The notes beneath the pieces were generated by a model. The model saw only the letters and a list, made by a program, of their open reading frames with translations, was not told where the DNA came from and searched no databases. Both the position numbers and the translations under genes were made by a program. A stretch of 63,528 bases of DNA from Psammoneis japonica (taxonomy: Eukaryota): positions 744,001-807,528 of the forward strand of contig QPGO01000009.1 in NCBI GenBank assembly GCA_008632985.1. Reading direction: 5' to 3'. Shown here piece after piece: positions 1,369-48,200 of the stretch (within the stretch, counting starts at the first letter, position 1; each line of letters starts with the position of its first letter).

Positions 1369-1747
1369 TGCACTATGCTCGAAGAACGAGTGTAAACGAA
1401 AGTAGAATGAAGTTCAAAAGGTGAAAATTATGAGAATTATTTCTGCGCAATCACTTTGGGTTTCTCCGAACGGGTTCTCAACAGCCTAAACCTTTTGCAC
1501 TGCTCCTACAGACAAAAGGCCTTTCGGAGAACATGATCGTGACGACAGATTGTCCGGGTGCGATTGACATTGACACATGAGATGTCAACATCATCGTGCG
1601 ATCGCATTTGCAATTCTCGACATCCGATCACTTCTGTGTGACTGATCTGTACTTCGTACGAACCCACGATTGACGTGCGATTGAAACATGCTTTTGTTTG
1701 ATGTGTAGATGTGTGTGTGCAATGCGTGCATGACAACGCACATTGCA
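1369..1747 (-). repeat. 3' LTR of the gypsy element
   Basis: Aligns without gaps to 6166-6544; 32 differences by my count, all transitions. Confidence 0.95.
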
Positions 1748-1757
1748 TTCGCCTCCC
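1748..1757 (-). other. Polypurine tract (GGGAGGCGAA on the minus strand)
   Basis: Purine-rich run directly abutting the 3' LTR. Confidence 0.8.
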
Positions 1758-1773
1758 TAATTGCACATTAGAG

Positions 1774-4700
1774 TCAGTCGTTAAACGGTGTTGTTCGACG
1801 AACATTGACAGTGTCAACAACGTTGCCGCGTTTGATCTGCACTGTGCCATCAGTGTGTGCCGTTGTTGTTGCACACGGTCCAACATGGGGCTGTTCTAAT
1901 TTTTGCGAGTCTTTCTCGAGCAGCATCTTTTCTCCCACTCTGTGCGTGCAAGGAGTGCGTCGAGCATTCTCTCGAGCGTCATTTTTATTTGTGATTTCTT
2001 GTTTTCGCTGCTGGATTGATTTCCAGTCTGCGACATGTTGGACGTTGAATGTCATGTTTCCATTGAAGACCAGTTGTCCTGGTGCAGCTTGCGCAGTGGC
2101 ATGACACGGCAGAACGTGCCGCAAACGCTGCCGCTGACAGCACTCCAGCGAAAGGATCCTCAGCATCTAGAGGTGTGTGTTGCAAATCAAATGCACGGAG
2201 CATGTTCCCCAGCACTTGATGCACATGTTCAACAATTGCGTTTGCTTGTGGATTTCGTACAGTTGCAGGCTTGACTTCAATGCCACAATCATCTTGCACC
2301 ATTTCTCTAAATTGGTGTCCGATGAACTCACTTCCACTGTCACATGTAATTGACGATGGCCAAGGACATCCACTCAACCATGTTCGTTCTAGTGGTCCAG
2401 CTGCAGTTGTGGACTCCTCTTTGGGATTTCCACAACTTCAAACCATCCAGTTGCTGGATCGATCATAGTCAAACATTTCAGGACTGGGGGTTTTTTCTTT
2501 CCCTTACGACGTATTTTGTATGGCCCAATGAGGTCCACACATAGTCGTTCCCATGGTGCGGATTCTGCGCACTTAGGAGGTAAATGTCCATATTTCTTGT
2601 GTTTCTTTTTGAATTTTTGGCACGTCTCACATCTCGACACGTATTTTCGTATGTCTTCACGTAAGGTGGACCACCATAGGTGTTGTGAGATTGTTTCTTC
2701 TGTTCGATTTATGCCAGGGTGAAGAAGGTACGTATGATGCCAATCTATCACTGCCTTTTGTAACGTCCTCGGGACGACAATTTTATCCTTATGACATATG
2801 AGCAACCGGTCTCGCTCGCCTCCACGAAAAGTCTTCGTATGAAACGTCTTATTTGACAATTGGGAGAGAATGTCTTTGTCCCGTTTTTGTTCATAATCAA
2901 GAACTTTGTAATTTAACGGAAAGACATTGTCGTAGGATTTTGGTAGGACCTTTTCAGCTAGCTCTTCTGTGCTGAGGGTTTCCATAGGTTCTATTTTCTT
3001 CATAGTAAGTCGGCTAATCGCATCTGCGACAATATTTGCCTTGCCCTCAAGGTATATTATTTTGGGACTGTATTCTTCTATTATTAGACGCCAACGCATG
3101 ACTCTGTCCGTTGTGAAATTTTTGTGTGTGAGATTTTTATGATCCGTATATATATTTATCTGTTGGCCAAACAGTATATTGCGGAACTCTTTTAACGTCT
3201 CCACTATGGACAATAGTTCTTTTTCTGTTGTAGTATAACGCGTTTGCGCTCCATTCAGCTTGCGGCTGTAGAAGGCAATTGGTCGGTTTTTCTGAGTAAT
3301 AACCGCCCCCAATTGAGAATTACTAGCATCGGTATATATCTCAAAGGGTATATTAAAATTCGGGTATGATAATAGTATATCTTTGGAGATGATGCGCTTC
3401 ATATTTTCGAAGGCTTTTTGTTCTGTTTCGGTCCATTGCCACTTTACTTGGGTAGAAGTGAGTTTGGCTAAAGGAGCTAAAACATGAGATCGTCGAGGCC
3501 ACATGTCTCGATAGTAGTTGATCATACCGATAAAGCGTCGCAATTCCTTGCGAGTTTTGGGAGTTGCGATCGCGCGAATCGCTTCTACTTTTTTTGGAAT
3601 CGGACTGATGCCCTTGCGGGTGATGTGAAAGCCTAGATAGTCTACTTCGGGTTTAGCGAAAAAGGACTTCTCGGCGTTGACCTTCAATCCGGCTTGTTCT
3701 AGGCGTAAGAACACCGTTTCAAGCTTCTTGAGGTGGTCTTGAAAATCACCTTTTGCAAGACACAACACATCGTCAACATGAGTTCTGACGAACTCCAGAC
3801 CTGCCATGAGCTCACTCATGTGCTCTTGGAAAATATCTGGAGCTCCACAGATTCCCATCGGGAGTCTACAGTGCTCATGTTTGCCCCAAGGCATGACGAT
3901 CGTGCACAAGCGACGTGCATGCGGCGTCAATTCGATGTGATGGCATCCCATGTTTAAATCTAGGGACGTTGCATACATGAAGCCTTCGAGCTTCTGTAGC
4001 ATATCCTGAATATTGGGTGGAGGAAACGGAGTACGAATTAACCTCTTATTTAGCTCACGAAAGTCGGACAAGAACCGAACTCTACCATTTTTCTTGGGTT
4101 GAACAAAGGTTGGAGCCGCCCATTCAGAACAATTTGTTTTTCTTGAGACTTTCAACTTGCACAGTCTTTCAACCTCCTTACGAGTAGTCGCCTCCAAGGC
4201 TTGTGGTGCGGGAAATGGTTTGGCATGATACGGACTCACGCCCGATTTCAACTTTAAATCCACCGGTTTCCCGGTCCATTTGCCCAGAGAACCATCGAAA
4301 AGGTTTTCAAATCTTTTTAAGAGGAAGTTCAGCTGCTTCTGCTCTTCAGGAGTTAGATGAGCAGCTGCTGCGGTCACATCATTGAGGTTTGCAGCGTGAC
4401 AGTCTGAGTCAAGGATCCGATTGACCCTGTCATTAAGACCAATCACTGCATGAGATTCCTCAACATGATCGGCAATCAACTTAAAAACATCGGCATCGAA
4501 GAGTGTGTCAACATTCTTCATGGGAGTAGTTGCATCTTCCCATCTAATCTCTTCATTCGAGAAGTCCAATGTCATCCCAAGACTTGACATTAAGTCGCGT
4601 CCCATGATCACATCATAACGACTTGAAGAAGAAGGGGAGTTGTCAACACATGCCGTTGTTTCAATCATCTTGTGTTTGTCAAATTCGGGCAAGGAGAATT

Positions 4701-4974
4701 GGATCTTACATCGACTGTCAGTCGTGAAGAGCCCTCCTTTGGTTTCCCAGAGTTTGGTGGCGGATGCTTTTGTTCTGAGTTTCCGCGTGAATTTGCGCAA
4801 AATTATGGTTGATGATGTTCCGCTGTCGAGGAGAACGCGCAGAGGCTTATTTTTCGCCTTGCCTGATGAAGCATTCATACAGGCGACGACTGCTGGACTA
4901 GTGTGAATTACTTTGGCCCTTTTTCTGGGCTTCCTAATGTCCAGTGGAGCGTGAGACTCCTCTTGCGGTGCAAG
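1774..4974 (-). pseudogene. pol: Gypsy pol (protease, RT, RNase H, integrase), disabled
   Basis: LLDSG protease; RT motifs LDLNMG, LPMG and HVDD (for Y-x-DD); RNase H YTDAS and YTDHKNL; integrase HHCC plus DLIGP, CDSGSEF and NPQANAIVE. Frameshifts near 2410 and 2100. Confidence 0.93.
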
Positions 4975-6129
4975 TCATTCCTCAGAATCACTGCGCGTCA
5001 TTTTTTCAAACTGACAATTTTCCTCGTCAAGGGTGTCAGAATCATAATTTTTGCTCTTGTGTTTTTTGTCATTGTTCGAAGAACTCGCTTTGAGCATTTT
5101 TTGAACTGCTTGGATCGCCACAGCATTCAACTCTTCTTTGCGAGCGGCGTTGTCATTGTCGCGACGAGACCACGTGCGATTGCCATTTGAACGGCGCCGT
5201 TTCGGGTCGGGTTCATAGTTCCCACGGCGTTCTTTCGCAAGTCTTTTGATCGACCAGCACTTGTCCGTGTTGTGAGTGGATTTCTCGCACAAAATGCACC
5301 ACTTCTCGGACTGAGATTTTTCGGTGCCATGTTGGTGACCATTTTTGGAACCACGTTGGGAACCACTCTTGGCTTTTGATGCAGCACTGCCACTGCCATC
5401 AGCCTTGGCATGAATGCCATCAAATGTGTCTTCTGCGACCTCCAGGCGCTCCAAGAACTCAACCAACTCGTCACAGGCATGTTTCAAAATTTCGAAACCC
5501 TGGACGGTCGACTGACGCTGCCACTTTCGAGGTGCAAGGTTGAAGAGGATGTCCTTGAGCTCGTCGTCCTCGATCTTCTGTTCCTTCCCAAAGGGAGGAT
5601 AGAACTTGAGGTCTTCGTTGACTTCCTGGACCCAAGCAGCAATTTCGCGTACTTTCATGGACTCCGGCTTCTTGAGATCACGACGCAAATGACGTTTCTG
5701 CACCGAAAGTGCGTTCTTGGGAAACACATGCCTCGTGAGATGTTGTGGGCATTTCTCGAAGCTTCCTTCCGCAGATTCGTCTTCAAGGTTCGCTGCCGCA
5801 TTCTCGAAGGCACGTAGAGCATCTCCTTGGAGCAACATGCGCATGAGACGAAACTCATCAGATTGCTTCCTGACATTCTGGCCCACTGGAAGTTGATCGT
5901 AGCTCTTGAGAAATTCGATGAACTTGGGGACACCTTGTTTCTTGTGGCACTCAACATTGATGGTGCAGGTGCGGCTGTCCTTCTTCTCGGGATGAAAACG
6001 TTGCTCCATCTTGAGGTGCTGGCTCGGTTTGAGGCTCTTCGGCTCGGAGTTCGATTCCAGCGGTTGAGGGACGATTTTCTCCTGCCTTGACGAAGTCTTG
6101 GCATTGGTTGCATGAGGTGAAAGCTTCAT
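4975..6129 (-). CDS. gag: Gypsy gag
   Basis: Open frame upstream of pol inside the LTRs; zinc knuckle CILCEKSTHNTDKC; ATG at 6129. Confidence 0.88.
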   Translation of the reverse strand: MKLSPHATNAKTSSRQEKIVPQPLESNSEPKSLKPSQHLKMEQRFHPEKKDSRTCTINVECHKKQGVPKFIEFLKSYDQLPVGQNVRKQSDEFRLMRMLLQGDALRAFENAAANLEDESAEGSFEKCPQHLTRHVFPKNALSVQKRHLRRDLKKPESMKVREIAAWVQEVNEDLKFYPPFGKEQKIEDDELKDILFNLAPRKWQRQSTVQGFEILKHACDELVEFLERLEVAEDTFDGIHAKADGSGSAASKAKSGSQRGSKNGHQHGTEKSQSEKWCILCEKSTHNTDKCWSIKRLAKERRGNYEPDPKRRRSNGNRTWSRRDNDNAARKEELNAVAIQAVQKMLKASSSNNDKKHKSKNYDSDTLDEENCQFEKMTRSDSEE

Positions 6130-6165
6130 CTTGAACTTGTTGCCTTCTGTGGTGTGTGTGCACAA

Positions 6166-6544
6166 TGCACTGTGCTTGAAGAACGAGTGCAAACGAAAGT
6201 AGAATGAAGTTCAAAAGGTGAAAATTATGAGAATTATTTCTGCGCAATCACTTTGGGTTTCTCCGAACGGGTTCTCAACAGCCTAAACCTTTTGCACTGC
6301 TCCTGCAGACAAAAGGCCTTTCGGAGAATGTGATCGTGACGACAGATTGTCCGGGTGCGATTGACATTGACACACAAGATGTCAACATCATCGTACGATC
6401 GCATTTGCGATTCTCGACATCCGATCACTTCTGTGTGACTGATCTGTACTTCGTACGAACCCACGATTGACGTACGATTGAAGTGTGCTTTTATTTGACA
6501 CATGGACACACATGTGCAACACGCACATGACAACGCATGTTGCA
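6166..6544 (-). repeat. 5' LTR of the gypsy element
   Basis: Direct repeat of 1369-1747. Confidence 0.95.
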
Positions 6545-31370: not shown

Positions 31371-31371
31371 T

Positions 31372-33252: not shown

Positions 33253-33701
33253 CGGTGTTGTCACGCTCTGTTTCGTTCAAGTTCCTGCTTCCTGCCATCT
33301 GCCATCATGCATGGCCATCCTGGATACCTGTAGAGGGCCCTACCGTACCGTAATCATTCTTCTTGAACTTTTTTGAAGTCATTTTGTCAGGATCTCGGGT
33401 GTGTGAAAGTTGGATTCTGTGTGTGTGCTTTGTCTGCCTTGCCCAAAACAGCATCTGTGACAGTTAGTGCGATCACAATGATGGGCAGATCATGCCAAGA
33501 GGGGCGAGCCCGGGCCTCATGATGTGCATGCAGGCAGGGCCTCTGCCTTGCAGTTCAAGCTCTGGCAGCAAATCTGTGTACATGGCACCCTGCGTGAGAG
33601 CCCGCTCACTTGGTGCAGCACACGGCACAGTGAAATTTTGTGCCTCTGATCTCCACACAGAGAGGCCTCTGCATCGGGCTTCTGATGGGATGAACCCAAC
33701 A

Positions 33702-33896
33702 TTTGAAAAGACCAACTAAATCAAAAAATGCCAAACACTGATTTTGGGGGAAAATGTGAGTTCGCTGCTTCTCACAAAATGGCGCCAATCTTGGCACATT
33801 CAGTTTAAAAGACCAGCCAAATCAAAAAATGCCAAACACAATTTTGGGCCAAAAATGAGTTTGCGACTTCTCACAAAATGACGCCAATCTTGGCAC
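33702..33896. repeat. About 100-bp tandem repeat, 2 copies
   Basis: aaaagacca...tcaaaaaatgccaaacac...ttctcacaaaatg.cgccaatcttggcac occurs twice. Confidence 0.85.
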
Positions 33897-34769
33897 TTGT
33901 GCAATTGGATGTCTCCCACAACTTGTGAAGCACGCAGAAACCCGTGCCATTGTTGCTGCCAGCATGCACTTCAGCAAGGCTCCTGGTGGCTGCCTTCCTC
34001 ATTTTTGAGAAGGTGAAGAAGTCTTGTTCCAGCCATGTGCATGGAATGACAGTGTGCAAAGCTGGAGGTTTTGTGCAATTTTGCACAAATGCTCCCACGT
34101 TGGGGTTGCATCTCCCCCATCAAAAATGTTTTTTGTGCCAATCCAATGGCACTCCAAGAACATGCAGATGAGATGCCCTCCTCTGTGTTTGGAAGCACCC
34201 ACTTTGTCTTTTGCACTTGTTCTGAAGGAGGGGAGACTCAATCCAGACACAAAGGGTTGTTGAATTTGACAGCAAATCTTTCTTTGTCCATGTGAGTGAA
34301 CAAATGGGCAAGAGCTTCAAGATGCGCAGCTGTGTGCTTCTTGTTCAAAAGAACTTGCAACATCAAAAATTTGACAGCATCTTTTTTCCTCATGCAAAGT
34401 GCTTTCAGGCCAATGATGAAAATGTTCATGCAGACAGACATGTGGAAGGAACTTCACGCACTGACCAGCTGGAGACAATGTGGGACATTTGAGCTCTGAT
34501 GTTTTTGTCTTCAGACCCGTTGCATTTGGCATTGATGAAAGAAACTGTGGTGAAAAATGATGAGATTGCCACCAACGGACAACAAAATGAAGGCAAGTTT
34601 ATGAAATTTCAGAAGAAAAACATGTCATGTGGTTGCTGAAACCTTGCCCATGGATGCAACAGTGACACACAATGTCAATGACATCATTGCAAATGGACTG
34701 AACTTGTCAGAACAATGATTTGACATGCGCAAGGTCACAGCAGAGCCACCAAAACACCATGGTGTTTTA

Positions 34770-37600
34770 AAATGCAGAGTTTTGAAAAGCCCACACAGAA
34801 CAGAAGGGAGCAGCAGAGGGAGGCAGCTGCTGCAGTGGCAGAATGGAATGGGTAGAAAACACTGGACGCAGGGCATTTGGTTGATGGGACAGGAGATGAA
34901 GGAGCAGGGAGAGAGGAAGCAAATCAGGGGGCGCAAATGGAGAGGTGAAGGACAACATTGCAGCTGAGAGCTTGAAGGGCCCATTGGGAAGGAGAAGCAG
35001 TGCAACAAGCACTGCCAAAGTGACTGGAGGACAGGCAGTGCCATGCAAAGTCAGCCGACAGGAGAAGAGCAGATGGAGAGGACAAGGCACAGAGAAAGGC
35101 AGAGTGGGAAGCATCGGAGTGACGAAAGTCAGAAGAAGAGGCCCAGGGAGGTTTGGGTTGAAAGCAGATGGAGGAAAATGCAGAGCCAAAGAGAAAGTGG
35201 TGAGCAAAGAATCCAATGCCACCAAGGTGATTGACGGTAAAAGGGAGAAGGAAGATGCCGTCATTGTTGAGTGAAGCAACAACAAGGGACAGATCAGCAC
35301 AGAGGAAGTGGAAGGGCCAAGAAACTTCAGTCTCGCGCTTGCATTTTGTGCCTCAATTAAAGTGGGGGAAGAGGGGCAGGCAGACCAGGAGGAGGGCAAG
35401 AGGGAGCTTCAGGTGCATTGACATCAACTGTGACACAGTGATGGCAGGAAGGAGCCAAGAGTGAGGCAGGGGGAGGAATGGAAATGCCAACATTGGCAGG
35501 GCAAAGGAGTGGACAGGTCGGGAGCAGATTTGCGGGCTCAAGGTGAACGTCATTGGGAGAATGACAGAGCTGGGCAAGGGGCGCCAAGGTTTGGGCCAGG
35601 ATGAAAAGGGTGTCATGAAGGGCGGCCATTGGAGAGCTTGGATTTGTGAGCACGATGGCAAGAGAAGGTGTGATCACCACAGGCATCGAGAGTGGCATGG
35701 CCACAAGGACAGGGCATGTTGACAAGGGAGGAAGGAATGATGGGAAGGTGGAGCTTGCGTTGGGCAGCAATGGTGCAGGCGTCAGAAGCAAGGTGGGAGC
35801 TGTGGAGGCGCTGGGAGAAGGGGTGAAGAGGGAGGCTGGCAAGTGGAGAAAGCAGCAAAGGCAGGGAGACTTGCACATTGGGGGCAGCATTGGCATGGGT
35901 GGAAGCAACAAGCTGTTGCTGATGGTCATGGCAAAGGTGGCAGGCCAGGCCAGGAAGAGCAGCCAACTTGATTAAAGTGGCAAGGGAGGCAGCAGAGAGA
36001 GCAGTGGTGGAGGCAAGGACCAGAGCATGGCTGCAAAAAATTGTGTGAAGTTGCAGGGTGGAATGGGGGTTGTGCCAAGAGGACAGAAAAAGCCAAAAAC
36101 AGCATGGAAGAGCAACAGCAGAACCTGATGAAAGCTTGACACCATGGGATGCAAAGCAAAATGAGCGGAGAAGAGACACAATGAATGATGGGATGGTGGT
36201 GGCCATTGGATCACGAAGGCTGAAGCCACCAAGCAACGCAGGAAAGAAGGACATGGCCAGAGAGTGGCCAGGAAGAGGAGCAACATGGGAGGCAGTGCAG
36301 CAAAGAAATCGGTGAATGATGGTGAGAAGGGAGTCTTGAAAGGAAGAGGTCAAAAGGAACAGATCAGGCCGATTGTCAGGATCAAAGTTGCAACAGAAGT
36401 CAGTGCCAAGAAGGTGGGCAGAAGAAGGAGTGAAGCAGTGCTTGAAGAGTTGACCACAGGTTTGTTTGTCATGGAGGCAGGTGAGAAGCATGTCAACTTT
36501 GTGAGAGAGAGTAAAAAAAATGGCAGAGAGGAAGGAATTGGCAAAATCTTGGGAGCCGAGGGGCTGGCCAAGGAAGCAAACACCAGAGGTGAGTTTGGGG
36601 TTGCAGGAGGGATCATTTGCAGGATTGAGATGGGAGAGAGAGGCACAGAGAGGGTTGGCCTGGGAGGGAGGAAGAGCAGGGATGGGGCCAATGATGCCAG
36701 CAATGGAGGTGAGAATTTTGGTTTTGCAGAGGTTGAGGGCGACACCACAAGGGGCACCAAGGGTGGAGAAACACTCAAGGAACTGCAGGAGGACAGAGTG
36801 AGGGAGAAAAGCATGAACTTTGTCAGTGTGGGAGCCAACAGAGGTGGGAGAGCAGCCAGGGATGTGTTCACAGAGTTCTTGGTTAATTGGGCAAAGGACG
36901 AGTGAGAGGACAAGGCTTGCAAAAACAGGACCAAGGGGGCAACCTTGGGCGAAGCCCTCTTCTTGAGTGAAGGAGTCCCAAGTGGAGTCAGGTTGACAGC
37001 ACCAGCAAGCCTTGAAGCTTTGGCACATGAGATTGAAAAAGGGAAGAAACAGAAGGAAAGCATTGGCAGAGGAAAGCAAGCAATGGCAAGCATCGCGCAT
37101 CATGGGAGGCTTCATTGAACATGTTGACCAAGTCCAGGAGAAGGAGAGCTTTGGCAGTTGGTGGGATCAGCTGTGGAAAGGCAGTGCTCCATGTTGGCAT
37201 GGGCAGAGTGGATGAGGTGGTGGAGTCTGCCTTTGACACTGATGCCAAATTCATTCTGCAAAAGCAGAGCCAAAAAGGGTCACAATGACAGAGCCAGCAA
37301 TGCATCAGAGAGCGGTCCCAACACCTGTGGGGCAGAGCTTTTTGAGGTTGTTGGCATCTTTGTGAAGTGCAACGAAGTGGTTCAAGGAGAACAAGGGATG
37401 GATGGATGGATGGAGGGATGGATCCATGAAGGAGAAAAAGGATGAGCTCATGAAAGGAGGGCAGACAAGGATGCTCCTGAGAGTTTCCCGCGGGAGTTCT
37501 GACAGAGAAGATCATGCAGAACTTGAAAAGATCAGCAGAATCAGCAAATGCTTGAGCGGCAGTTTTTGATGCTGTCATTAGAATGTTCAGCTTTGTGCAC
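34770..37600 (-). mobile_element. Decayed non-LTR retrotransposon with restriction-like endonuclease (CRE-like)
   Basis: RT motifs LLLDLVNMFNE, GFAQGCPLGP, LNLCKTKIL and FLGQPLG; zinc finger CPCG...DACGDHTFSC; endonuclease relics CPANV (for RPAD) and VDV; PFTVNHLGGIG. Confidence 0.82.
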
Positions 37601-40499
37601 AAATGAGTTGATTAAAATCAGAGGCACTGAGATGCACCTGTTTGGTTGTCAAAAAACAATTTTTCAGGAGCACGCATTCAATGCATGCATCATTTCTCAC
37701 AGAATTGCAGATGTCAAATTTCACCCTCTTGCACTCGCGAGAAAATCAGGTGTCATTTTGGGGGCCTGTGCAATTCAACTGTACAAACATGTTCAATGTT
37801 GCACCTGGGTCACATCCAAACAAACCGCCAAGCAAACTCACAAGGACGCATCTGTGCATGGCTCACAAATGGACAGCTTGCCAAGTTTTGTTTTTGTTGT
37901 GAAGTGCAAACCAGCCAGCAGAGCCTTTTTTGATGCACATGATGACACCCCAGCATGCCATGTGAACCAAGCATTTGCCTTGCCCAAAAATTTTGCCATT
38001 GTGCTGTGTGCATGCATGCAGCCCACATTCAGCCTCTGTGCTGCAACATCACAATGAGACCGGTTTTGGTGCATTTTGTCAAATCAGCCATTTGTTGAAA
38101 CCACCAGCATTGGGGACCAAGGGTGGCCCACATCATGGCCAGATGAACTGACTTTCCCGCAGCTTCCTTTTGCTGTGATTTGTTGAGTGTTTGAAAAAAC
38201 AGCTTTCCGATGTCAGCGCCCACAAAAACATCCACAATGCCCACAATTTGCCAATCACCACCCAAGCTGAAAAAAAATTTTCCTCCAATTGAGCAGAAAC
38301 TCAATGTTGGCTTTCGTGTGATCATGGGTTTTGGCCTGCATGGTGAGACTTTTTCCCCAGAGGTGGATCTTGGATCTGGATCTTGGATTTTGGAGCAGAG
38401 ATCAAGATGATGCAGCACCTGCCCACGCACATTGCTTGGCCTTGTTTGAGCCATTCTTCTTCATTTTTGTTCATTGCAGACATGGACATTGCTTTGAGGA
38501 GGTTGACTGGCCAGGTGAGGCCCTTCTTGGTTTGGCAAGAAACGGTGTTGTGGTTTTGTGGCAATCAAGGGTCTTTTTGCTGGTGTCTTCCATTTCTGAG
38601 CAGAAAAACCCATGCTCTGATGTTCATTTGTTCCTGTTGCCTCCTCTGATGATGCCCATTGCTGTCATTGACTGACCACAGCCATGAAAAGTTTCCCCTG
38701 TCTTAGCCATGCTGTCGTTTGTCGGAAGCAATGCACATTCAACATCGATGTTTCAGCGCATCATTGCTGTCCAGCGCTGATGATCCCACCAATCCAGCCA
38801 AGGTCTTCTGTGCAGCAGCATCCAAAACAAAGGATGAGAGAGCAGCCAGCCACCTCCTTAGAGATGCAAACAATGCATCTGGCATTTCTTCTTGTTGTGC
38901 CTCTGTGGACCATTCCCTCATGTCGTTTTCGGTGTGTTCTCTCGGCGAGTCAAAAGGTAAAAGTGCTTGTCATGCTTTCTCTTTGACTCATTTCATTGCA
39001 CCTCAATGGCTTGCACATTCACTTTAGACTGTGCGCAAATCTTCCAGGGTGTTGAGAAAGCAGTCAGCACGAGTGTGAGTGAATTGACTGCCACAAATCA
39101 AGTTGGCTGCTTTTGCTTTCTTTGTGTGCATTTCGGTTGCAGTGCGTCATCCCCATTGCTTCATTTGCACCGAATTAGCTGTGACATTTGCCACAAATGA
39201 CATGTCAATTGTCCATGCAACAAACACAATGTTGCACTGGGTCCAAAAGTTCTTTGGACAGCAGGAGTGACCCGCCACCTCCGACAACAACGCCCGAGTG
39301 TGCACAGTGCATCCAAAAACTGCGGTGCTCCGGCCTCTTGTGCTGTGCCTCCAAGACCGCAAATTGCAGCAGATTGGATGTGTGTCACGTCACAACGACC
39401 CAAAGCAATGATGGATGCCCCATTTTGACATTCTGCATTGTTTCCAGCCCCACGAGCGACCCGCCACCTCCGGCAACAATGACCAAGTGTGTCCAAAAAA
39501 TGCAGTGTTCCAGCCAATTGCTGCACCTCCAAGACCGCAAACTGCAGCAGATCGAATGTGTGTCTCGTCATGATGACCCAAATCGATGATGGATGCCCTG
39601 TTTTGACATTCTGTGTCGTTTCTGGCCCCACAAGCAACCGGCAACCAACGACCAGAGAAAACAAAAAACCTCCATGTCCATCTAAATGCCAAAGAAACAC
39701 AAAACCTTTGGAAGATTCCAACAAAACAGCTGCACCACCAAACTCAGCGCACTTGAATTGCCTTGCACCAATGTCATTGATGCCAAAACATCGTCCCACT
39801 GATGGACGATTTTAATGAATGGAGCCAAGTTGTGGAGAAAACAACAACCACCTTGCCCACACAAATGCAAAAGAAACTCAAAAGATTTTGAAGATGCCAA
39901 CAAAAACAAAACAATGTCATGTTCGCCACGTTCCAATTGCCTTGTGCCAATGCTCTCACTGCTGTGACATTGTCCCAGTTGCGGTGCACTCATGAACGGA
40001 GCTGTGCCGCAATGGTGCATGTTCTTGCCTTTTTTCTCGGAATGAGTTTCGCTCGCACGAGTGAGTCGTCCAGTCACTTTTTTGAGGTTGTGGGCCAAAC
40101 GCGTAGAAAAAAAGCATCGTGATTCAATGCCTCCCCACAAATGAGTCAATGTCCAACGCATTTGCTGTGATTTGTTGAATGTCTAAAAAAATGGCATTCC
40201 GATGTCAATGCCCACAAAAACATGCACAATGCCCACAATTCGCAAATCAATGCCCAAGCTCAATGCATTCTTCCTTGACTCTCATCAGGCAGGAACTCAA
40301 CGCCTCCCAATCAACAAACACATGTCCAACGCTTGAAGCTAGCCCACCCACAGTGATTGCAGCCATTGCGCTGCTGAAACCATGTCAATTGTCATTGAAC
40401 CTGCAGCACGTCACTCGTCACCTTCTTCTCAATTCATGTGTTCCTTTTAAACTGCGCATTCTTCAGCCACAATCCAGATGATCGATGACATCAACACAA

Positions 40500-41745
40500 G
40501 GCAAAAATCCAAAGCAGACAATCTCCTGCGATCTGACAATGCCAGGCTGCAGAAGAAGCAATGACACATCTCTGGGGTGTCGTTTGACTCTGATGACACC
40601 TCTGAGGAGCTTGAGCGACAGAAAATGATGCGGGAATTAGAGGAAGCGAGGAAAAAAGTACAAGAGCTTTTGGCGGTCGGCGAGCAAAGCGGTCAACAAC
40701 AAGTGGTGCAAGTGTCATCAGCATCAAGAAGTGATGAGCCGCCTCCGACTGCAACCGACAAAGAAGCGCCAAATGACACAGATGCTCAAAATGACATTCG
40801 TCCACCCAGTCCAACCCCATCCACCGGGTGAAGTGGAAGACAACGTCTTGAGGTCCTCAGAGGATGCACACAGATTGATGAATCCAAGTTTCTCTGCCGG
40901 TGACGACAGATCATTCAAAGAACTTGGTGGCAAAGTGTTGAAAGTTTCAAGTGCTCTGGTTGTCATCAACACGCAACGGCTTTTTGTTTGCAGGAGTGGG
41001 GATCTGTGTCACCAAATTCGCTTCCGACCATGTGCAAGAGAAACTCAACGATGTGGTGCAGTTCGGCCTGGAAATTGCCAGTCACATGCTGCTTTGTGTC
41101 GGTGAACCTCACGCTGAACATGACGTCTTTTGTCCTTTCCTGGAGAAGAGGGGTGGCTTTACGTTGACATGCTGAAAGAAAGGACAGAAAAGGAATGGAT
41201 GACCGTGTTTCACACCCAATGTTCAATGGCCGTTGGAGCAACGGCTGACTCACGTGCAACGATGCACCGTCTCCACCGCCAACTCAAAAGCCATCGCCAC
41301 ATCGGACTGCGCCGCCGACTCCCAACCCCTCACCACCGCCAACTCTACCACCGACTCACAACCCTTCTCCGCAACCGGTGCCTCCGACACCGCCTTCATC
41401 TGCAACTAGAAATTTGATTGCGGACACATTGACAGCTTTTGATGGGGGTGCGTCGCTCCAAGACGCCTCTTCGCCGCAACCTCTAGCCTCGATGTGGTTG
41501 GAAGGAAGCGCATTTTTCGGTTCTTATAGATCATCGAAAGATACAACGATTTGTACTTGCCAGCTTGTGCTACACGCCAGTGGTGACAGTGGGTGGAATG
41601 CCGTAAGGGGTCGTGGTTGAGTGGCAGCAACGCTTGCAAATGGGATGGTGTTTTGCAAGTTGACAAGCTGTTCTTTTTGCTCAATCGGTTGGAAGGAACG
41701 ATACCACGAAAGCTTGGCTTACTGTCCAACTCATTACGAGGTACA
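40500..41745 (+). pseudogene. LRR membrane-protein pseudogene B
   Basis: Copy of 28250-29480; WLSGSNACKWDG and NRLEGTIPRKLGLLSNSL are recognisable. Confidence 0.8.
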
Positions 41746-42180
41746 TTGAATTTTGATTCTCTGTTGTCAATGCAATTGAGCTTGCTGATAAGTCTGCCAT
41801 ATAGTGATATTTGTGACGATGAAGAAAGGGAGACGAGAGGCGACACGACTCTACGAGAGAACCACAACTCGCCAAAATCTTCAACCCAAAGACCGACTCA
41901 CAAAAGAAGGCGGTCAGCAAACGGCGGTCAACTCGAAAGGTCAAGAAATCGGCGACTTGCGTGATGCAAAGGATTGAAGAAACTGCTACAAGCAATCGAC
42001 TTTCTTCTGCTGAAATAGTATTTTCGCACGATTAAAATTTGTTCCTATTACTGCGTTGCTGCAGTGTCAAAATAAGCAACCGTATTTACTTTACGCATAC
42101 AGTACATCCCCGTCCCAGTCAGTTCGACGGCCACTACAAGGACGGATGAATCTCGCAGACAGATGGTATAGAGGGCGGGA

Positions 42181-44629
42181 CTATGTTTCCTCAACTCCTT
42201 GCTGCCGAAGTTCATGTATCCGCTGCTCAAGTACTTCTATTTCTCTGTGCAACCCAGCAGCGACACTATCTGCATCCTCAGCTTCTGACTGGGGCCGAAG
42301 TTCATGTATCCGCTGCTGAAGTACTTCTATTTCTCTGTGCAACCCAGCAGCGACACTATCTGCTTCCTCAGCTTCTGCTTGTATGGATAACTGGGAAAAG
42401 CTGTCATTGTTCTCAAGCAGAGCTAATTGAGCTTTAAGGTTCTCAATTTGCGCTTGCAACTCCTCATTAGTACGTGCAACTTCTCCTTGGACAATACGAG
42501 GCGTCTCGGGTTGCGAGAGCGTGGCTGGTCGCGTCCATTCACTAACCGCGGAGGGACACACGATACGATTGCGTTGTTCAACTCTTGGCCCATACACCGC
42601 AAAGGCCCCCACAATATCTTGCTGTCCATCCTCTTGTGGAGACACAATCCCTTGGTCCGTCGCCTGTGCTCGTATTTCCTCCGTTTGATAGGACATCGCC
42701 TGCTCTTCCGCTGATGTTTCCGGAGGTTCGCGGTCAGTCGGTGGCACACTAGCCGGCGTTTGTTCTCCTTGAATGGGGTGCTGCTCTTGACTCAGTTGCC
42801 GACATTTTCCCTCTTTCTCCGATACCAAGAGCCTCAAAGCGACATCTGATGAACCACCTTCATTTCTCTTTCCACTCCTCTTTTTCTTCCGCTTTTTCCC
42901 GGCATACTGGGAACTTTCTTGGGGATCTGGAGTCCTACTACTTGAAACAGATGCTTCTTCCGAGAGCACGGCCGGGTCTACATTGGATGAACCATATTGG
43001 TTGGCAGGGCGTCTGGTGCTGCTTGTTTTCCTTTCACGGTTTCGATGTCCCCTCCTCTTCATTGGCTTTCTTCCCGCTGAAGGATCCCCCGCCACCGCAT
43101 CCGTAGGTTCCAAATATCCGTCACCAGATGCGGCTGGCACAGTCGTCCCACTAGCAGGGAATGATGTCAATCCGCCAGTCGTCGTCGAAGCTCGACCACC
43201 AGACAGTACAATTGCAGGCGAGGACGTCGGTTCATCCGCAGCCGCTGGAGACGACTGGATGCTTTCGTGGGGAGCATTACTCGGTGATGGAGGAGATGCA
43301 ACGGGGGGATCCCGAAAGTACTCATGCGCCAGTTTCTCTTCTTGGAGTTTTTCTGCTAACTTCCGTCTCTCGAGAGCCAGCGCGCGACGTTCGTGTATAC
43401 TCAATGATGGCAAGTCCTTCTGGCGTTTCTCTATGTCTTCTTCCAGTTGTTTTTGAGATTTGTACTCCAGCCGTTCACAACGGTTGTTGACAAAGTCTAT
43501 CAGGTGCTTCGCGTCCGAGGCTCTCTGGGCTTCGTCTTCGGCGGCATGGTCGTAATCCACTTTGTCGATTTCATCCTGGCAAATTTCCTTCAGCCAATCA
43601 TGAAAAGCACGCGTTTCGCCTTTCTCTAAAAAAGATGACAGCGTAAGATCAACACATTAATGGCATCGTTTAGTTTCATTTCTGTTGGAGGATTCATCAT
43701 CAGCGAGAACTCACCGTCAATGATTGTATCCATGTCGAAACGTTGGAAATATCCACACCTGTGTATCAGGTCTTTCAGTTCTTTTTGAATATTTTCATTC
43801 AGCTCTTCAGCCTTTTTTGCACCTGCACTAGAAGGCAATCTCTTAAACTCTGCCACAGCCTTCTCCTTTTCGCGTGGTAGTTCCTTGTATGGTTTGTATC
43901 TTTCCATTTCACAAAGTGCTTTGAGGACTTTCAATTTTTCGTCACAAATCTCCATACGCTTGAAGACTTCGTCGGATGGGTCCTCCAGTTCAATTGCTTC
44001 CTTCTCCCTTTCGCAGGCCGCTATGGTTTTCTCCAATTCGGTTCGGGTTTCGAACGCGGGGACGTTACAAGCTAGACATTTTCCTTCCAGGACCTTCCCC
44101 TTTAGTGTTAGTGCTGTCTTTGTCTTTCGGAATTTTCCGGTTATCTTGAACGTTTTCGTTCCACATCCGGCACCAGCACACTTTCCTAGTGGGGTCATGA
44201 ACGAAGAACGAAGAACGAAGAAGCATTCAGTTCCGTGAAGAGTTCGCAAACAACTCGGCAAACACTCAATAACGACTCACCGGTCCTGACTTTTTTTTCT
44301 GCCTCCGACAGTAAGTTTACCATCTCTCTCTTGTTATTCTTTCTCGCACATAGCTTTGGCGTTCTAAAATGCTCGTCCTTGGCAAGAACATCTGCACCCC
44401 TTTTGAGCAGCAGCTTAGCTAATTCGATGCAGCCATTATGCGCAGCGTAGTGGAGTGCTGTCAGCTTTCTTCTGTTGCGTGCATTCACGTCATCCACGTG
44501 GCCCTTATCTTCCCACCAACTTTTCAACAACGTGTGCACCTTCTCTACCTCACCTTTCTTGGCATACGTGATGAGAGGCGTCTCGTCATGGTCGTCTCTT
44601 GCAATACTTGAAACCTCTGAAGTGCTCAT
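42181..44629 (-). pseudogene. Ankyrin/coiled-coil gene copy lacking the TIR domain, frameshifted
   Basis: Near-identical to 29918-32355. The 7-mer acgaaga is triplicated at 44201-44221 (+14 nt frameshift). Homology to copy A ends at 44688. Confidence 0.85.
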
Positions 44630-45226
44630 TCTTGCTGTCTCTTCCAAACGCACGTCGAATCGTCGAATAGAGTAATATTCTTTCTCGTTCCGTAAAGGAA
44701 GTGAGAAGAAGCAGACGAAATATCTTTTGTCTCTGCTTTTGCTATCAGCTCCCCCACTCTGCACGTTAGTTCACCCCCCTTCCACCGCATGTACGTCCTA
44801 TGAAACGTAAGTTTTCGTACAAAGCCGATGGCAACACCGGTTCTGCGGGCTTCCCCTTGTGAAGCACGAATGGACTTTTAGCCGCGATCGATGCGGGACT
44901 TGTGAATGCCATTTTTCGTACTTTCTCTATCATGCGTTTATATAAAATGATTAATTGAGAACTTATAACCTTCAGATAGTATGAGTAGTACTATCAATTG
45001 AAAACAGAAAAATAACTATTGCACTTTACGTATCTTGCAGTATGATATCTCCTTTTCCATACCGGGATTACTCAAAGGACTAAATAATGATTTTACGAAT
45101 ATAGCATTAAAGAGTTCCCGCCAAAAGCCACTTTTTCTTGTGACGCGCATTTATGAGCGCGTTATGCCAAAGAGGTGAAAGCGACGAACAACAGCAGGAA
45201 AGCAAAAAGCAAATCAATGCTGTACG

Positions 45227-48200
45227 ATGAACCCGACCGCTGGACAACCTAGTACAATTGCATCTCCCATAGTGTGCAGCCATCATTCGATGGTAGACGC
45301 CGGAAGAGGCAAAATCTCCAGGGTATCGTTTGAGCAGGGCAACCAAGAGACTATGGAAAACAATCCCTCTACTGCAGGCAATAACGCGCTCAAGCGAAGC
45401 AAGCGGACAACGCATCGGAAATCATACAAATTGATCAGAAAAAGTGACAAACAAAAGGGTCCAAAACATCCAACAGTCGAATTTTGCAGAAGTAAGACAT
45501 CTAAAGAATTGGGGCCACCGTCGTTATCAACAGACTCAAGCAGTGGCAGTCGATCAGACACGAGTGCGGCTACGCCAGCTACTTCTGCAAAGGACGACGA
45601 TGTCACGCAACGCCAAGCTCTTACGACCGAGGATAAGGAACAAGGTGACAAGTCGCCTCCCACTACAAACAGTGAGGAAAAGCAAAGCATTGCAGATTCG
45701 CAAAGCACACCAAGTGAAATCGAATCCCACGCATCATCGGACATTCCAGATCAAAATCTGTGTCAAAGGTTTTGTAATTGGTTGGAGACAATGACCTTCA
45801 AAGAAAGATGTGCGTTGATTAGCGGACTCACCACAATCGCCGTCGTCGGGGCGGTCGTTGGCCTGTGGGTTGGATTGACGGGCGGCACCGGAAACAAGAC
45901 TACCACGGAACGAGCAACCGGATTGGAAATATTTTTGGTTGGTCTGAACACCACATTTGATGACGAAGATTCTGAATTATGGGCAACCACAACTAAGGAC
46001 TTTGTGGAAGCCCATTTCAACGATCGTCGCCGGCGTTTACGTGGTTTGCTGAACACCAGTGTAAAAGACGTGGAGACCACCTTGAAAATAACAAACACAA
46101 CAGTCGTGCAGGGTGACAATGGTACTGATTCTTTGCGTGTCACTTACAACCAGAATTTCACTTTTGCGACCTCTGAGAGCGCCTCGGTGACGATTGAAGA
46201 CTTGGTGAATGGGCCATTTAATACGAATGCAAGCAGATTTTCATACATGGACAAACTTACGGAAGCTGGTAGGATGGCAGGAAGTGACGTCTTTAATAAT
46301 TTGGTTGGAATAAGCCAAGTACCCGCAAGCGCTAGTCCCACGGAGTCTCCATCCTCCTACAACTCAACCCAGAGCCCTTCTTCTCTACCTCCATCAGTGA
46401 CAGAGAAACCCTCTGTGGCGCCCCAGTCAGGAGTTTCCCTGTCACCTTCTCAGGTTTCTTTAATCCCGACAAAGTATCCGTCCATTGATCCCTCGACGAC
46501 TCATCACTCTTTTCTTCCGACAATTTCTCAAGCTCCGACGACTTCGACATCATCCAACTTAACGCCCAATCCATCTCAAGCCACCGCTCCACCGCACACC
46601 GGTTTTCCATCTCAAGACACTCTTCAGCCATCATCACCGACTGCACCGCCCACTTCATTTCAAGCCACCTCACCACTTACTGGTGCTCCATCTCGAGCCA
46701 CTCCTCGGCCAACTCCGCCACCATCTTCACTCACAACTGTACCAACGCCTCCAACTCCACCACCGTCTCAACCTTCGACTCCCGTGCCGACTCCCGTATC
46801 GACTCTACCACCGTCTCCACCGCAAACTCAAAAGCCATCGCTGCGACCGAATCCGCCAACAACTCAAGAGCCATCGGTAACAGCGACTCCACCACCGTCT
46901 CCACAGCCAACTCCAAAGCCATCGGTAAGAGCAACTCCACCACCGTCTCCACCGCCAACTCCAAAGCCATCGGTACCACCGACTCCACCACCGTCACCAC
47001 AGCCAACTCCAAAGCCATCGGTACGACTGACTCCGCCACCGTCTCCACCTCCAACTCCAAAGCCATCGGTAAGACCGTCTCCACCTCCAACTCCAAAGCC
47101 ATCGCCACCTCCGACTTTGCCGCCGACTCCCAACCCCTCACCACCGCCAACTCTGCCACCGACTCCCAACCCATCTCCGCCTCCGATGGCGGCTTCATCT
47201 GCGACTCATAATTTGATTACGGATACATTGGGTGCTTTTAATGGGGCTGCGTCGCTCCAAGACGAGTCCTCGCCGCAATCTCGAGCCTTGGCGTGGCTGG
47301 AAGGAAGCCCATTTGTCGATTCCTATCCAGACTCGCGTAAGATACAACGATTTGTTCTTGCTACCTTGTACTACAGCACCAGTGGTGATAGTTGGTTTCA
47401 TAAGGACTCGTGGTTGAGTGACGGCAACGAGTGTGGAGGGTGGAATGGTGTGCGGTGCGACACCAAGGTACAAGTTGACTTTCTGTACTTTGGAGGCAAT
47501 CGGTTGGAAGGAACGATACCACCAGAGCTTGGCTTACTGTCCAATTCATTACGAGGTACGTTGAACAGTTGTTACTCTTTTGTGTGTACTCTTTAGCTAA
47601 CCGTATTGTGGTTTCGTCTTGGTCCTGCTTGCATGCGTCGCAGCTGGTTTGTTCCTAGAAAACAACGATTTGTCGGGCACTATTCCAACGGAGCTCGGTT
47701 TGTTGACAAATCTTGGTGAGCACAGTGCAGCATGTATGATACACGTTTCTACGCGGATTTGACGTTTACTGTTTACTCTTTTTTCCGAATCTGCACAGAG
47801 GACATAAGACTTCCGAAAAACAACCTTGCGGGAACAATTCCTGCTGAACTTTCAAGGTTGGACTATCTAAGTGAGTATTATTTTAAATGAAGTTGTAAAG
47901 AAGTATTTTATTGCTTCTTTCTCATGGTTCGATTCCTGTTTTCCCCTTTTCCGCAGAGCTTTTGGACCTGGCTGACAATGACCTTACAGGCACCATACCT
48001 GAATACTTGACAAGAATGGGACGACTAGGTGAGAGCATGTTGTGATGACAACGAGAATAGCCTCACATTTTACCTGATTCTCTTATATTCTAACTCACGC
48101 ACACTCCTCCGTGCACATTTCTTGTTTTCCAATTACACGCTAAACACAGAACATTTGGAAGTTTGGGGTAACAACTTTTCAGGGGGGTTTGTGTGCCCAG

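Follow-up and report, generated by a model that had tools for sequence, protein, structure and literature searches.

Probable TpA-directed hypermutation of a repeat block, grading into the adjoining copy of a segmental duplication

To our knowledge, and with the literature found here included, repeat-directed hypermutation (RIP, TCG hypermutation, APOBEC editing) is cytosine deamination, and all of it drives DNA to A+T. In plant and vertebrate transposons, methylated CpG decays by deamination to TpG/CpA, confined to silent repeats and slower in GC-rich flanks, while A-to-I editing of the ADAR or ADAT/TadA type, with A-to-G hypermutated copies of retroelements or viruses as its counterpart, acts on RNA, has a strong preference for a 5′ U/T and leaves a strand-specific trace in retro-copied sequence. 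A search of the literature outside subscription journals and supplements returned no description of TpA-to-CpA/TpG hypermutation of repeats. For RIP in Neurospora crassa and Leptosphaeria maculans, the available part of the source (PMC2973834) describes a leakage that grades off from mutated repeats into the single-copy sequence beside them; the available parts of two further sources describe a RIP-like CpG (TCG) hypermutation of repeats in the Pucciniomycotina (PMC3318451; PMC12730594), and that of another describes 5-hydroxymethyluracil (5hmU), a thymine modification, in dinoflagellates as a silencing mark enriched in repeats, overlapping 5mC and with a reported preference for replacing T in TA and TC (PMC11572971).

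We analysed a window of 63.5 kb (the whole stretch of DNA studied here, on which any generality of the results rests), in which one segment is present as two units, A and B (Table 1). By blastn, positions 28099-32406 of A match 40361-44688 of B at 94.8% identity and positions 27069-27972 match 39454-40358 at about 85%; an extra unit of about 190 bp is present in B and not in A. The copy of the TIR-ankyrin gene in B is without the TIR-coding 5′ part, and a homolog search with the gene of A returned generic ankyrin matches only. Total A/B divergence along B is U-shaped, a feature absent from the preliminary description of this DNA: it is 0.4% at 42.2-43.95 kb and rises to 4-9.5% again at 43.95-44.7 kb. 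The low-divergence core, which begins about 0.4 kb past the end of the hypermutated zone, is probably a gene-conversion tract. The distal end of B shows no TA or CG bias (TA 2 versus 5; CG 3 versus 4); it appears to be as old as the proximal end and is not hypermutated.

Table 1. Coordinates of the features discussed (o/e, observed/expected).
Feature	Position	Strand	Remarks
SRPBCC copy S1	1-906		Outgroup for S3; spared pair with S2
Gypsy-type LTR element	1369-6544	-	LTRs 1369-1747 and 6166-6544
Block without TpA and CpG	7000-12500		Both near zero; contains SRPBCC S3
SRPBCC copy S3	9287-9653 and 10392-10596		Hypermutated; inside 7-12.5 kb block
SRPBCC copy S2	16127-17032
Block without TpA and CpG	17500-20000		Both near zero
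Duplication unit A	27053-32406		Reference copy; blastn
TIR-ankyrin gene of unit A	29918-33276	-
Multicopy repeat block	33500-39000		TpA o/e 0-0.10; CpG 0.12-0.38; presumed source of spread
Duplication unit B	39249-44688		Left end adjoins repeat block; blastn
Near-saturated zone of B	39249-41450		56/69 TpA, 25/102 CpG changed; TpA o/e 0.06-0.15; CpG o/e 0.55-0.9
LRR-like fragment in B	41266-41767
Fade zone of B	41450-41800		Converted and kept TpA interleaved; last conversion 41783
Near-identical A/B core	42200-43950		Context-free divergence 0-0.4% in most bins; no TpA to CA/TG
Distal old-diverged end of B	43950-44688		3.3-7% context-free differences; not hypermutated
Third paralog O of LRR-like fragment	47074-47583	+	77% identity to A and B; outgroup
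TpA-only depleted island	54000-56000		TpA o/e 0.07-0.10; CpG normal, 0.83-1.0
TpA-poor, CpG-normal stretch	59500-63528		TpA o/e 0.13-0.29; carries copia-like gag/pol start

The fate in B of the TpA sites of A was scored by alignment in 250-bp bins. Conversion to CpA or TpG affects 56/69 sites (81%) at 39450-41450, 6/20 (30%) at 41450-41950, 0/70 at 41950-43950 (0/54 within the core at 42.2-43.95 kb) and 2/23 at 43950-44700; it falls with position in B (Spearman rho -0.68, p 3e-26; logistic midpoint 41148) and is strongly one-sided, with 62 conversions in B versus 2 in A at 39450-41950 (p 2e-16). The preliminary description had proposed that such changes are limited to the end of B adjoining the block at 33.4-39 kb and fade with distance by about 41.8 kb; the formal alignment bears out both points, and the examples quoted there lie at aligned positions (A27169/B39543, A27382/B39756, A28849/B41113, A29501/B41768). 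That A keeps its TpA sites is true for the most part. However, 11 dispersed TG<>CA double differences between the copies imply that A is not wholly spared: we estimate that roughly 10-25% of the TpA sites in its proximal zone were converted as well, A being about 4-8 times less converted than B over the same sequence. A reach of about 2.5 kb had been suggested; we find ~2.3 kb in B, but spread is uneven across the window: into the gypsy element it runs ~3 kb from the 7-12.5 kb block, and at the remaining block edges it stays under 0.5-1 kb. Similarly, the spread was thought to enter an LRR gene copy; the fade does fall within the LRR-like fragment, whereas the hardest-hit zone (39.25-41.2 kb) is upstream of it. 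The change of CpG to TpG/CpA, on which the preliminary description was silent, is also B-specific (26 in B versus 7 in A), and CpG loss in B declines steadily away from the block, from 25/102 to 1/29 and then 1/102.

The sequence context of the changes is narrow. Per oriented site, A-to-G change affects 58/140 sites after T versus 0.04-0.06 after A, C or G, and C-to-T change 25/205 sites before G versus 0.03-0.04 before other bases; by 5′ base the latter is flat (0.05-0.07), so that only a 3′ G has an effect and no TpC effect is seen. CG stands in B at 1/83 of the TpA sites of A aligned at 39450-41500. The outcomes in B, 31 CA and 25 TG, are interleaved (31 runs versus 28.7 expected, z 0.63), with no coherent strand runs in this copy; the one coherent strand run in our data is in the TG/CA-rich end of the gypsy LTRs. 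Where TpA persists in depleted blocks, the context is mostly TTAA or CTAA (relative survival 0.46 and 0.35, respectively); ATAT and ATAC have no survivors there.

The direction of change is TA to CA/TG in B, as had been proposed; composition and four outgroup tests (paralog O, the SRPBCC trio, the gypsy LTR pair and 60 protein homologs) agree that the TG/CA state is not ancestral. The proximal zone of A (first 1.8 kb) has a TpA o/e of 0.54 and a CpG o/e of 1.02, the window background being 0.5-0.7 and about 1.0, while the proximal zone of B (0.06 and 0.66) resembles the repeat blocks. Paralog O agrees with A at 6/11 of the B-derived changes that fall at an ancestral TpA. A further fragment of the unit recurs at 38167-38304 and was left out as an outgroup, because its position within the depleted block would expose it to parallel conversions. 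At sites on which SRPBCC copies S1 and S2 agree, serving as the outgroup, 7/7 TpA and 18/18 CpG are gone in S3, with CA/TG as the outcome at 7/7 and 13/18 of them, respectively. Columns with Tyr in at least 60% of the 60 protein homologs tell the same in the gypsy pol: in its TpA-poor half, 10 such columns read Y3 H4 C2 F1, and in its TpA-normal part 11 read Y9 H1 F1.

Beyond the duplication, the three core blocks (7-12.5, 17.5-20 and 33.5-39 kb) have a CpG o/e of about 0.0-0.35, and G+C remains near 48-50%. Three stretches (5-6.5, 54-56 and 59.5-63.5 kb) are depleted for TpA alone; in these TpA-only islands about 85-90% of TpA is lost with CpG intact, and no terminal repeats were found flanking that at 54-56 kb. 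The loss of TpA is stronger than that of CpG, reaches further, and at 5-6.5 and 54-56 kb occurs without it. In the gypsy element, the LTRs and the first 1.5 kb at the 5′ end have lost their TpA, an effect that tapers through pol. Its LTR pair differs at 32/379 columns, of which 31 are TA/CG-step conversions (11 TG<>CA doubles, 7 single TA and 2 CG) and one is of another kind; at the 11 double sites the two LTRs took opposite outcomes, CA in one and TG in the other, and 22 CpG are kept in both. Given these LTR differences and the TpA-only islands with intact CpG, the TpA change, made in place on the DNA, outpaces by far the background rate of substitution as well as the decay of CpG. Homologs of the element's protein are environmental proteins; among 78 related gypsy loci from metagenomes TpA o/e is 0.56-1.06 and none has the signature, which hints that TpA loss is not a trait of gypsy elements themselves; the peptide patterns of this search favour intact copies and would miss heavily mutated ones.

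The block next to B had been called a dead retroelement. That it is multicopy follows from its summed contig depth of 350-1960 versus about 62-71 for exact single pieces; its identity as a retroelement is less well founded, in that a Pfam search with 54 open frames from the depleted blocks gave RVT_1 alone, below threshold at E=0.055, its 517-aa frame has no homologs at E<=0.001 in a search over proteins 284-905 aa long, and tblastn of the window's gypsy and copia frames gave no match in the depleted blocks. The SRPBCC pair S1/S2, by contrast with S3, is spared, in agreement with the preliminary description: TA conversions are symmetric (4 versus 4), and S2 has no TA excess, even though a gap of about 0.5 kb is all that separates it from the 17.5-20 kb block.

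The reading that we favour, and consider probable, is a DNA-level, A:T-to-G:C hypermutation of TpA that is directed at repeat-rich, presumably silent chromatin and leaks into its flanks. We infer an enzyme as the agent, and chromatin state rather than homology as the target. A TpA step becomes CpA or TpG by one A:T-to-G:C transition, on either strand, and would thereby leave the pool of targets; CpG is lost to TpG/CpA alongside, at a lower rate, most simply read as 5-methylcytosine deamination. The data show the direction and context of the change, its graded edge, its action in place on sequence already duplicated or inserted, and a pace well above that of ordinary substitution. From a repeat block the process would reach up to 2-3 kb into the DNA beside it; copy B would have been hit because its left end adjoins the 33.5-39 kb block, and copy A, in ordinary sequence, only lightly touched. 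Candidate enzymes are an adenine deaminase that prefers a 5′ T, or an enzyme that modifies thymine to a form mispairing with G. It is quite possible, though we stop short of calling it probable, that this reflects a genome-defence or heterochromatin-linked editing of A:T pairs in DNA, in which TpA is recognised in silent chromatin and changed to CpA/TpG within a few generations, spreading a few kb into genes, disabling transposons and reshaping adjacent immune-type gene copies; possible editors are adenine deaminases with kinship to TadA/ADAT or bacterial toxin deaminases, and thymine oxidases of the TET/JBP type that leave a base pairing with G. TadA/ADAT-like, toxin-derived and LmjF36.5940-like deaminases are among the classes given for stramenopiles in PMC3239186.

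The most serious alternative, which we regard as unlikely, dispenses with spread: the first 2.3 kb of B would belong to a multicopy family, or would form one larger duplicated segment with the repeat block, and would be targeted by homology or copy number in the manner of RIP. Summed contig depth is 210-1046 over 39.0-41.0 kb versus 140-245 further right and about 62-71 for exact single pieces, so the proximal zone of B has other paralogs and might be targeted directly; the repeated unit fragment within the block and the conversions held by A in the same zone fit as well. However, A carries the same sequence with so few visible events, the 1.75-kb core, about 99.6% identical between A and B, shows no attack, the edge is a gradual one of intermixed sites with no sharp end of homology, and CpG loss falls steadily with distance from the block. 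The preliminary description had set the process apart from RIP; this stands in so far as the process was not set off by the A/B pair itself. According to the available part of PMC2973834, however, RIP too leaks in a graded manner, and it is possible that homology or copy number triggered a process on the multicopy block next to B, from which it then leaked.

Slow passive decay, in which a mutagenic modified thymine and 5mC in silent chromatin erode TpA and CpG with no burst of editing, is distinctly unlikely. CpG survival does track duplex stability (GCGC 0.65, TCGA lowest at 0.03), as expected for spontaneous 5mC deamination, and in the available part of PMC11572971 dinoflagellate 5hmU marks and silences repeats and is reported from earlier work to replace T mainly in TA and TC. 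Against decay alone stand the LTR pair, in which the background accounts for at most one difference, and the islands that have lost TpA with CpG intact.

A mosaic origin, in which ectopic gene conversion from an already hypermutated paralog gave the proximal part of B and the edge is a recombination junction, seems improbable. Context-free divergence is 4-10% in the dense zone (39.45-40.95 kb) versus 1.2-4.4% at 40.95-42.2 kb, by which the dense zone may have a partly separate history, and the core at 42.2-43.95 kb is most probably a conversion tract. However, kept and converted TpA are intermixed over 41407-41800 and CpG loss is graded over the whole 2 kb; moreover, this explanation shifts the question to another locus, hypermutation being independently evident from the LTR and SRPBCC tests.

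It is very improbable that modified heterochromatin bases were misread in sequencing or base-calling, even though the pattern coincides with chromatin presumed to be silent and fades as an epigenetic mark would. Contigs of run X1 match four repeat-block pieces (514-892 nt) with 0-1 differences at a word depth of 61.5-71.3, exact contigs having been shown for the repeat block while 39.2-41.5 kb is covered by summed depth and a word share of 0.82 for 36000-45000; these matches, together with a longest contig of 315 kb, imply that the reads are accurate, though run X1 may share its sample with the assembly. A symmetric modification could not yield a clean choice of CA or TG at each site, nor are the opposite outcomes in the two LTRs and the conserved Tyr codons now reading His or Cys in keeping with misreading. 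The reverse polarity, classical RIP (CpA to TpA) on A with B ancestral, can hardly be right: among the 72 context-clean sites at which A has T and B has C, 52 show the RIP dinucleotide pair, TpA in A against CpA in B, but A is at background composition with B the outlier, and all the outgroup tests refute it.

If true, such editing of A:T pairs in DNA would be the first repeat-directed hypermutation other than cytosine deamination, and a process that destroys TpA would need an enzymology unlike it. As G+C would be unchanged, screens based on GC or on RIP indices would miss the process. TAA and TAG stop codons and Tyr codons would be removed, and because two of the three stop codons vanish, open reading frames would be inflated, a pitfall in practice when genes are predicted in such genomes. 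Leakage into the TIR-ankyrin/LRR-type segment suggests how genes next to repeats may come to diversify or to decay, much as has been proposed for fungal effector genes exposed to RIP leakage. Base-editing research, too, would have an interest in a natural enzyme that follows a simple context rule in changing A:T to G:C on double-stranded DNA.

Compared with the known systems, the changes share with A-to-I editing the A-to-G class and the 5′ T preference; unlike fixed RNA editing, both orientations are interleaved, and a segmental duplicate contiguous with unmutated DNA and the LTRs of an inserted element are affected. APOBEC-type editing, strand-coordinated and C-to-T in TpC/CpC, is not matched, given the flat effect of the 5′ base. 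The confinement of CpG-to-TpG/CpA change to repeats, including the loss in the proximal zone of B, is a feature of 5mC deamination, which cannot remove TpA; here TpA loss precedes CpG loss and extends further. For dinoflagellate 5hmU, the available part of PMC11572971 describes no mutational consequence, and the TpC effect is absent here; introns in the window are GT-AG and the run contigs total 141 Mb, neither of which looks dinoflagellate-like. The DNA tentatively comes from a stramenopile-like microbial eukaryote. The TCG hypermutation of the Pucciniomycotina is likewise C-to-T at CpG in repeats, in keeping with the lowest CpG survival being in TCGA; as described in the available parts of its sources it is without a TpA component and would match the minor, slower component only.

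RIP is resembled in several respects: within repeat blocks the process is near-saturating, faster than background, dinucleotide-specific and in place on DNA, and it forms a gradient into adjacent unique sequence (along B, and also in the gypsy element) able to damage neighbouring genes. However, RIP, which is premeiotic and depends on RID/DIM-2, mutates both members of a linked duplicate once its length exceeds about 0.4-1 kb, whereas here the A/B core has no converted TpA, the S1/S2 pair is symmetric and unbiased, and a 5.4-kb linked duplicate with such a near-identical core is unattacked; nor does the sequence look fungal. RIP is also a C:G to T:A change, mainly CpA to TpA, which enriches for AT; here the pair is the exact reverse, the dominant class is A:T to G:C at TpA, with C-to-T at CpG the minor one, and the RIP indices in mutated blocks run the opposite way (TpA/ApT 0.04-0.12; (CpA+TpG)/(ApC+GpT) 1.8-2.2).

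In unit B, the copy of the duplicated gene segment whose left end adjoins the 33.5-39 kb repeat block, TpA has been converted in place, at the DNA level and in a context-specific manner, to CpA or TpG. The process is far faster than background, is bound to repeat blocks and leaks into their flanks, and a slower decay of CpG goes with it. By blastn, units A and B are 94.8% identical over 4.3 kb and about 85% in the first kb, with B holding an additional unit of ~190 bp that comes from an internal repeat roughly 178 bp long; the four examples quoted in the preliminary description fall on aligned pairs (A27169/B39543, A27382/B39756, A28849/B41113 and A29501/B41768). In a global alignment profiled in 250-bp bins, divergence is 8-16% at 39.45-41.2 kb, 3-6% from 41.2 up to 42.2 kb and 0.4% at 42.2-43.95 kb, and is back up to 4-9.5% at 43.95-44.7 kb. 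Context-free differences amount to 4-10% at 39.45-40.95 kb, 2% at 40.95-41.45, 1.2-4.4% at 41.45-42.2, 0-0.4% in most bins of 42.2-43.95 and 3.3-7% at 43.95-44.7 kb. A gene-conversion tract is the best reading of the near-identical core (42.2-43.95 kb).

Both units carry an LRR-type gene fragment, and the TIR-coding part of the TIR-ankyrin gene is missing from B. A 90-bp tandem duplication lies within the TIR-ankyrin frame of both units (29941-30112 and 42204-42377), its repeats being 89% alike in unit A and 97% alike in unit B, and 138 bp of the duplicated unit reappear at 38167-38304, inside the repeat block at its right end (80% identity to A 27777-27912, 85% to B 40161-40263). In the full LRR-type paralog, a long stretch rich in Pro, Ser and Thr includes 24/48-bp tandem repeats at 46860-47186. 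A contig of sequencing run X2 omits 89 nt at 43625-43715, and the CT..AC ends are GT..AG on the minus strand; X2 thus behaves like cDNA from a spliced TIR-ankyrin transcript. This run, listed as "DNA?", covers chiefly genic parts, and A (near 31.37-31.45 kb) and B are indistinguishable at the skip.

Features and zones of the window, with positions in window coordinates
Feature	Position	Strand	Remarks
Unit A	27053-32406		dispersed direct duplication; repeat search and blastn
Unit B	39249-44688		dispersed direct duplication; repeat search and blastn
TIR-ankyrin gene	frames 33276-31372 and 31402-29918	minus	in unit A
Full LRR-type paralog	45179 to about 48260		single-LRR exons of 72 bp, short GT-AG introns between
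Paralog O (third, of the LRR-like fragment)	47074-47583		77% identical; polarises 41.26-41.77 kb
SRPBCC copy S1	1-906		in ordinary DNA
SRPBCC copy S2	16127-17032		in ordinary DNA
SRPBCC copy S3	9287-9653 (also 10392-10596)		Polyketide_cyc2-like, hypermutated; inside 7-12.5 kb depleted block
Gypsy LTRs	1369-1747 and 6166-6544		used as identical-at-insertion pair
TpA of A to CA/TG in B	39450-41450		56/69
TpA of A to CA/TG in B	41450-41950		6/20
TpA of A to CA/TG in B	41950-43950		0/70
TpA of A to CA/TG in B	43950-44700		2/23
TpA-only loss	5.0-6.5 kb
TpA-only loss	54.0-56.0 kb		TpA o/e 0.07-0.10, CpG o/e 0.83-1.0
TpA-only loss	59.5-63.5 kb		TpA o/e 0.13-0.29

A window-wide map of TpA, CpG and CA/TG observed/expected ratios (o/e) at 500-bp resolution shows blocks with nearly no TpA and nearly no CpG at 7.0-12.5, 17.5-20.0 and 33.5-39.0 kb (TpA 0-0.13, CpG 0-0.38, CA/TG 1.6-2.05). 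In other blocks the loss is confined to TpA, and the proximal zone of B stands in between (TpA 0.06-0.15, CpG 0.55-0.9), which points to a faster and wider loss of TpA and a slower loss of CpG. The depleted blocks, 19.4 kb altogether, contain 80 TpA, while the 30.7 kb of ordinary sequence contain 1282. Because TAA and TAG vanish with TpA, these blocks are full of overlapping open frames, a hazard for gene prediction; at 34600-37700 and 59700-63527 such frames measure 200-517 aa on both strands, plus one of 1276 aa whose copia-type Pol_BBD/gag_pre-integrase match is limited to aa 914-1109. The 33.5-39 kb block is multicopy, and homology searches assigned it no identity; the 2-kb island at 54000-56000 has sharp edges, and neither a Pfam match nor terminal repeats were found for it. 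Given S3, depleted blocks contain host-gene copies besides transposons. TpA poverty is not inherent to the family of the gypsy element (1369..6544, minus strand), since 78 metagenome relatives have TpA o/e of 0.56-1.06, and in just two of their 500-bp windows does it fall below 0.2. Four relatives on environmental contigs (L033, L052, L020 and L012) have CpG o/e of 0.12-0.24 with normal TpA, so that CpG decay without TpA loss exists among them. Look-ups with the TIR protein and with gypsy pol give a weak indication of stramenopile affinity.

At 39450-41200, 90 sites have T in A and C in B, 52 of the 72 in clean context being TpA in A and CpA in B, and 47 have C in A and T in B, 23 of the 33 clean ones being CpG in A and TpG in B. 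Each TpA of A was traced to its aligned state in B, and the distance dependence proposed in the preliminary description is present in this formal alignment: TpA conversion falls along B with a Spearman rho of -0.68 (p 3e-26) and a logistic midpoint at 41148, fading to none at 41950-43950. Retained and converted TpA are intermixed in the fade zone, where the final conversion lies at 41783. CpG conversion to TG/CA (rho -0.30, p 6e-7) is 25/102, 1/29, 1/102 and 3/40 in the same four zones. At 39450-41950, B has 62 TA conversions vs 2 in A (p 2e-16) and 26 CpG conversions vs 7 (p 1e-3); at the distal end of the duplication the counts are 2 vs 5 and 3 vs 4. Hypermutation stops about 0.4 kb short of the near-identical core, in DNA still bearing old differences, and the distal end of B, just as old, shows no bias; the conversion tract is therefore not the cause of the restriction to the block-proximal end.

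Per oriented site, A-to-G change reaches 58/140 with a preceding T and 0.04-0.06 with a preceding A, C or G; C-to-T change reaches 25/205 with a following G and otherwise 0.03-0.04, the base 5' of the C having no effect. There is one conversion per TpA site, and CG stands in B at only 1/83 aligned TpA sites of A (39450-41500). CA and TG outcomes are intermixed along B (31 runs, 28.7 expected), a coherent run occurring only at the TG/CA-rich end of the LTRs. Surviving TpA are chiefly TTAA (relative survival 0.46) and CTAA (0.35), with no ATAT or ATAC; surviving CpG are chiefly GCGC (0.65), with a minimum at TCGA (0.03).

Spread from the block into B had also been proposed, and the graded fade has a counterpart in a second gradient: starting at the 7-12.5 kb block, it crosses the 5' LTR and gag region of the gypsy element and reaches pol, with TpA o/e of 0.06-0.26 over 5.0-6.5 kb rising through 0.32, 0.40 and 0.51 to 1.04. 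Other block edges, however, are sharp: S2, whose end is some 0.5 kb away from the block at 17.5 kb, has TA conversions of 4 vs 4 against S1. Spread out of blocks is genuine, yet variable in extent. TpA o/e falls to 0.33 at 33000-33500, the first coding part (TIR region) of the unit A gene, adjoining the block's left edge; this dip might reflect minor leakage into a live gene. The claim that only one copy is hit stands as a matter of degree: B is far heavier, but 11 scattered TG<>CA doubles between A and B (A 27066-29302), one of them confirmed by O, indicate that some TpA of A were also converted independently. By our estimate, conversion has reached about 10-25% of the proximal TpA in A, allowing for new TA arising by ordinary mutation and later converted, against about 81% in B. 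It is conceivable that B's proximal zone was targeted directly, as summed contig depth (210-1046 over 39.0-41.0 kb vs 140-245 farther right) points to additional genomic paralogs of this zone; A, which carries the same sequence, nevertheless shows that sequence alone does not set the outcome.

The change from TA to CA/TG seen in B might instead have been classical RIP of copy A viewed in reverse, but five lines settle the direction as originally described: composition, paralog O, the SRPBCC copies, the LTR pair and a protein outgroup. The proximal 1.8 kb of A (TpA o/e 0.54, CpG 1.02) resembles the window's ordinary sequence (0.5-0.7 and about 1.0), whereas the proximal zone of B has 0.06 and 0.66, with CA/TG at 1.68. 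Differences polarised by O comprise 11 B-derived, 9 A-derived and 4 unresolved, and 6 of the 11 B-derived changes began as TpA common to O and A. At positions where S1 and S2 agree, S3 retains 0/7 TpA (3 to TG, 4 to CA) and 0/18 CpG (13 to CA/TG). The gypsy LTRs now differ in 32/379 columns, 31 of them accounted for by 11 TG<>CA doubles, 7 single TA conversions (split 4/3 between the LTRs) and 2 CpG conversions, with 1 of another kind; 6 TpA and 22 CpG are retained in both. TG opposite CA is expected when the two LTRs convert the same ancestral TA independently. Finally, gypsy pol columns with Tyr in at least 60% of 60 homologs read Y3 H4 C2 F1 in the TpA-poor half (aa 109-432, nt 3679-4650) and Y9 H1 F1 in the TpA-normal part (aa 433-648), Y-to-H being the most frequent mismatch overall.

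That the letters are modified bases misread in sequencing is argued against by a single clean outcome at every site, by the opposite outcomes that the LTRs took at 11 sites, and by His or Cys at conserved Tyr codons. Run X1, whose longest contig of 315 kb implies accurate reads, holds 0.82 of sampled words of 36000-45000; its contigs (word depth 61.5-71.3) show 1, 0, 0 and 0 differences from 33675-34443, 35697-36588, 36858-37371 and 37344-37969, a partial check, as X1 is maybe the same sample as the assembly and, among the matches listed, no exact piece falls in 39.2-41.5 kb.

We infer an enzymatic base modification steered by chromatin state. Adenine might be deaminated where T precedes, and TadA/ADAT-type enzymes prefer A after T on RNA. 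Alternatively, the thymine of TpA might be oxidised to a G-pairing form, and the sequence would accommodate adenine deamination and thymine oxidation alike. Repeats of dinoflagellates are marked and silenced by 5hmU, which is reported to replace T mainly in TA and TC (PMC11572971); deaminase classes specific to stramenopiles, of unknown function, appear in a published catalogue (PMC3239186). A full-text search of the main texts of openly accessible papers returned no description of TpA-directed repeat hypermutation. We rate the process as belonging to repeat-directed hypermutation, as a variant for which we found no earlier description; its enzymology, if confirmed, would make it categorically new.

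RIP with leakage (PMC2973834) is closest in behaviour, and the preliminary contrast with RIP holds to that extent only in part; RIP's defining chemistry and dinucleotide rule, tested here, were not found, and a long, nearly identical linked duplicate has been spared. The CpG component resembles ordinary 5mC decay or the hypermutation at TCG known from rust and smut fungi.
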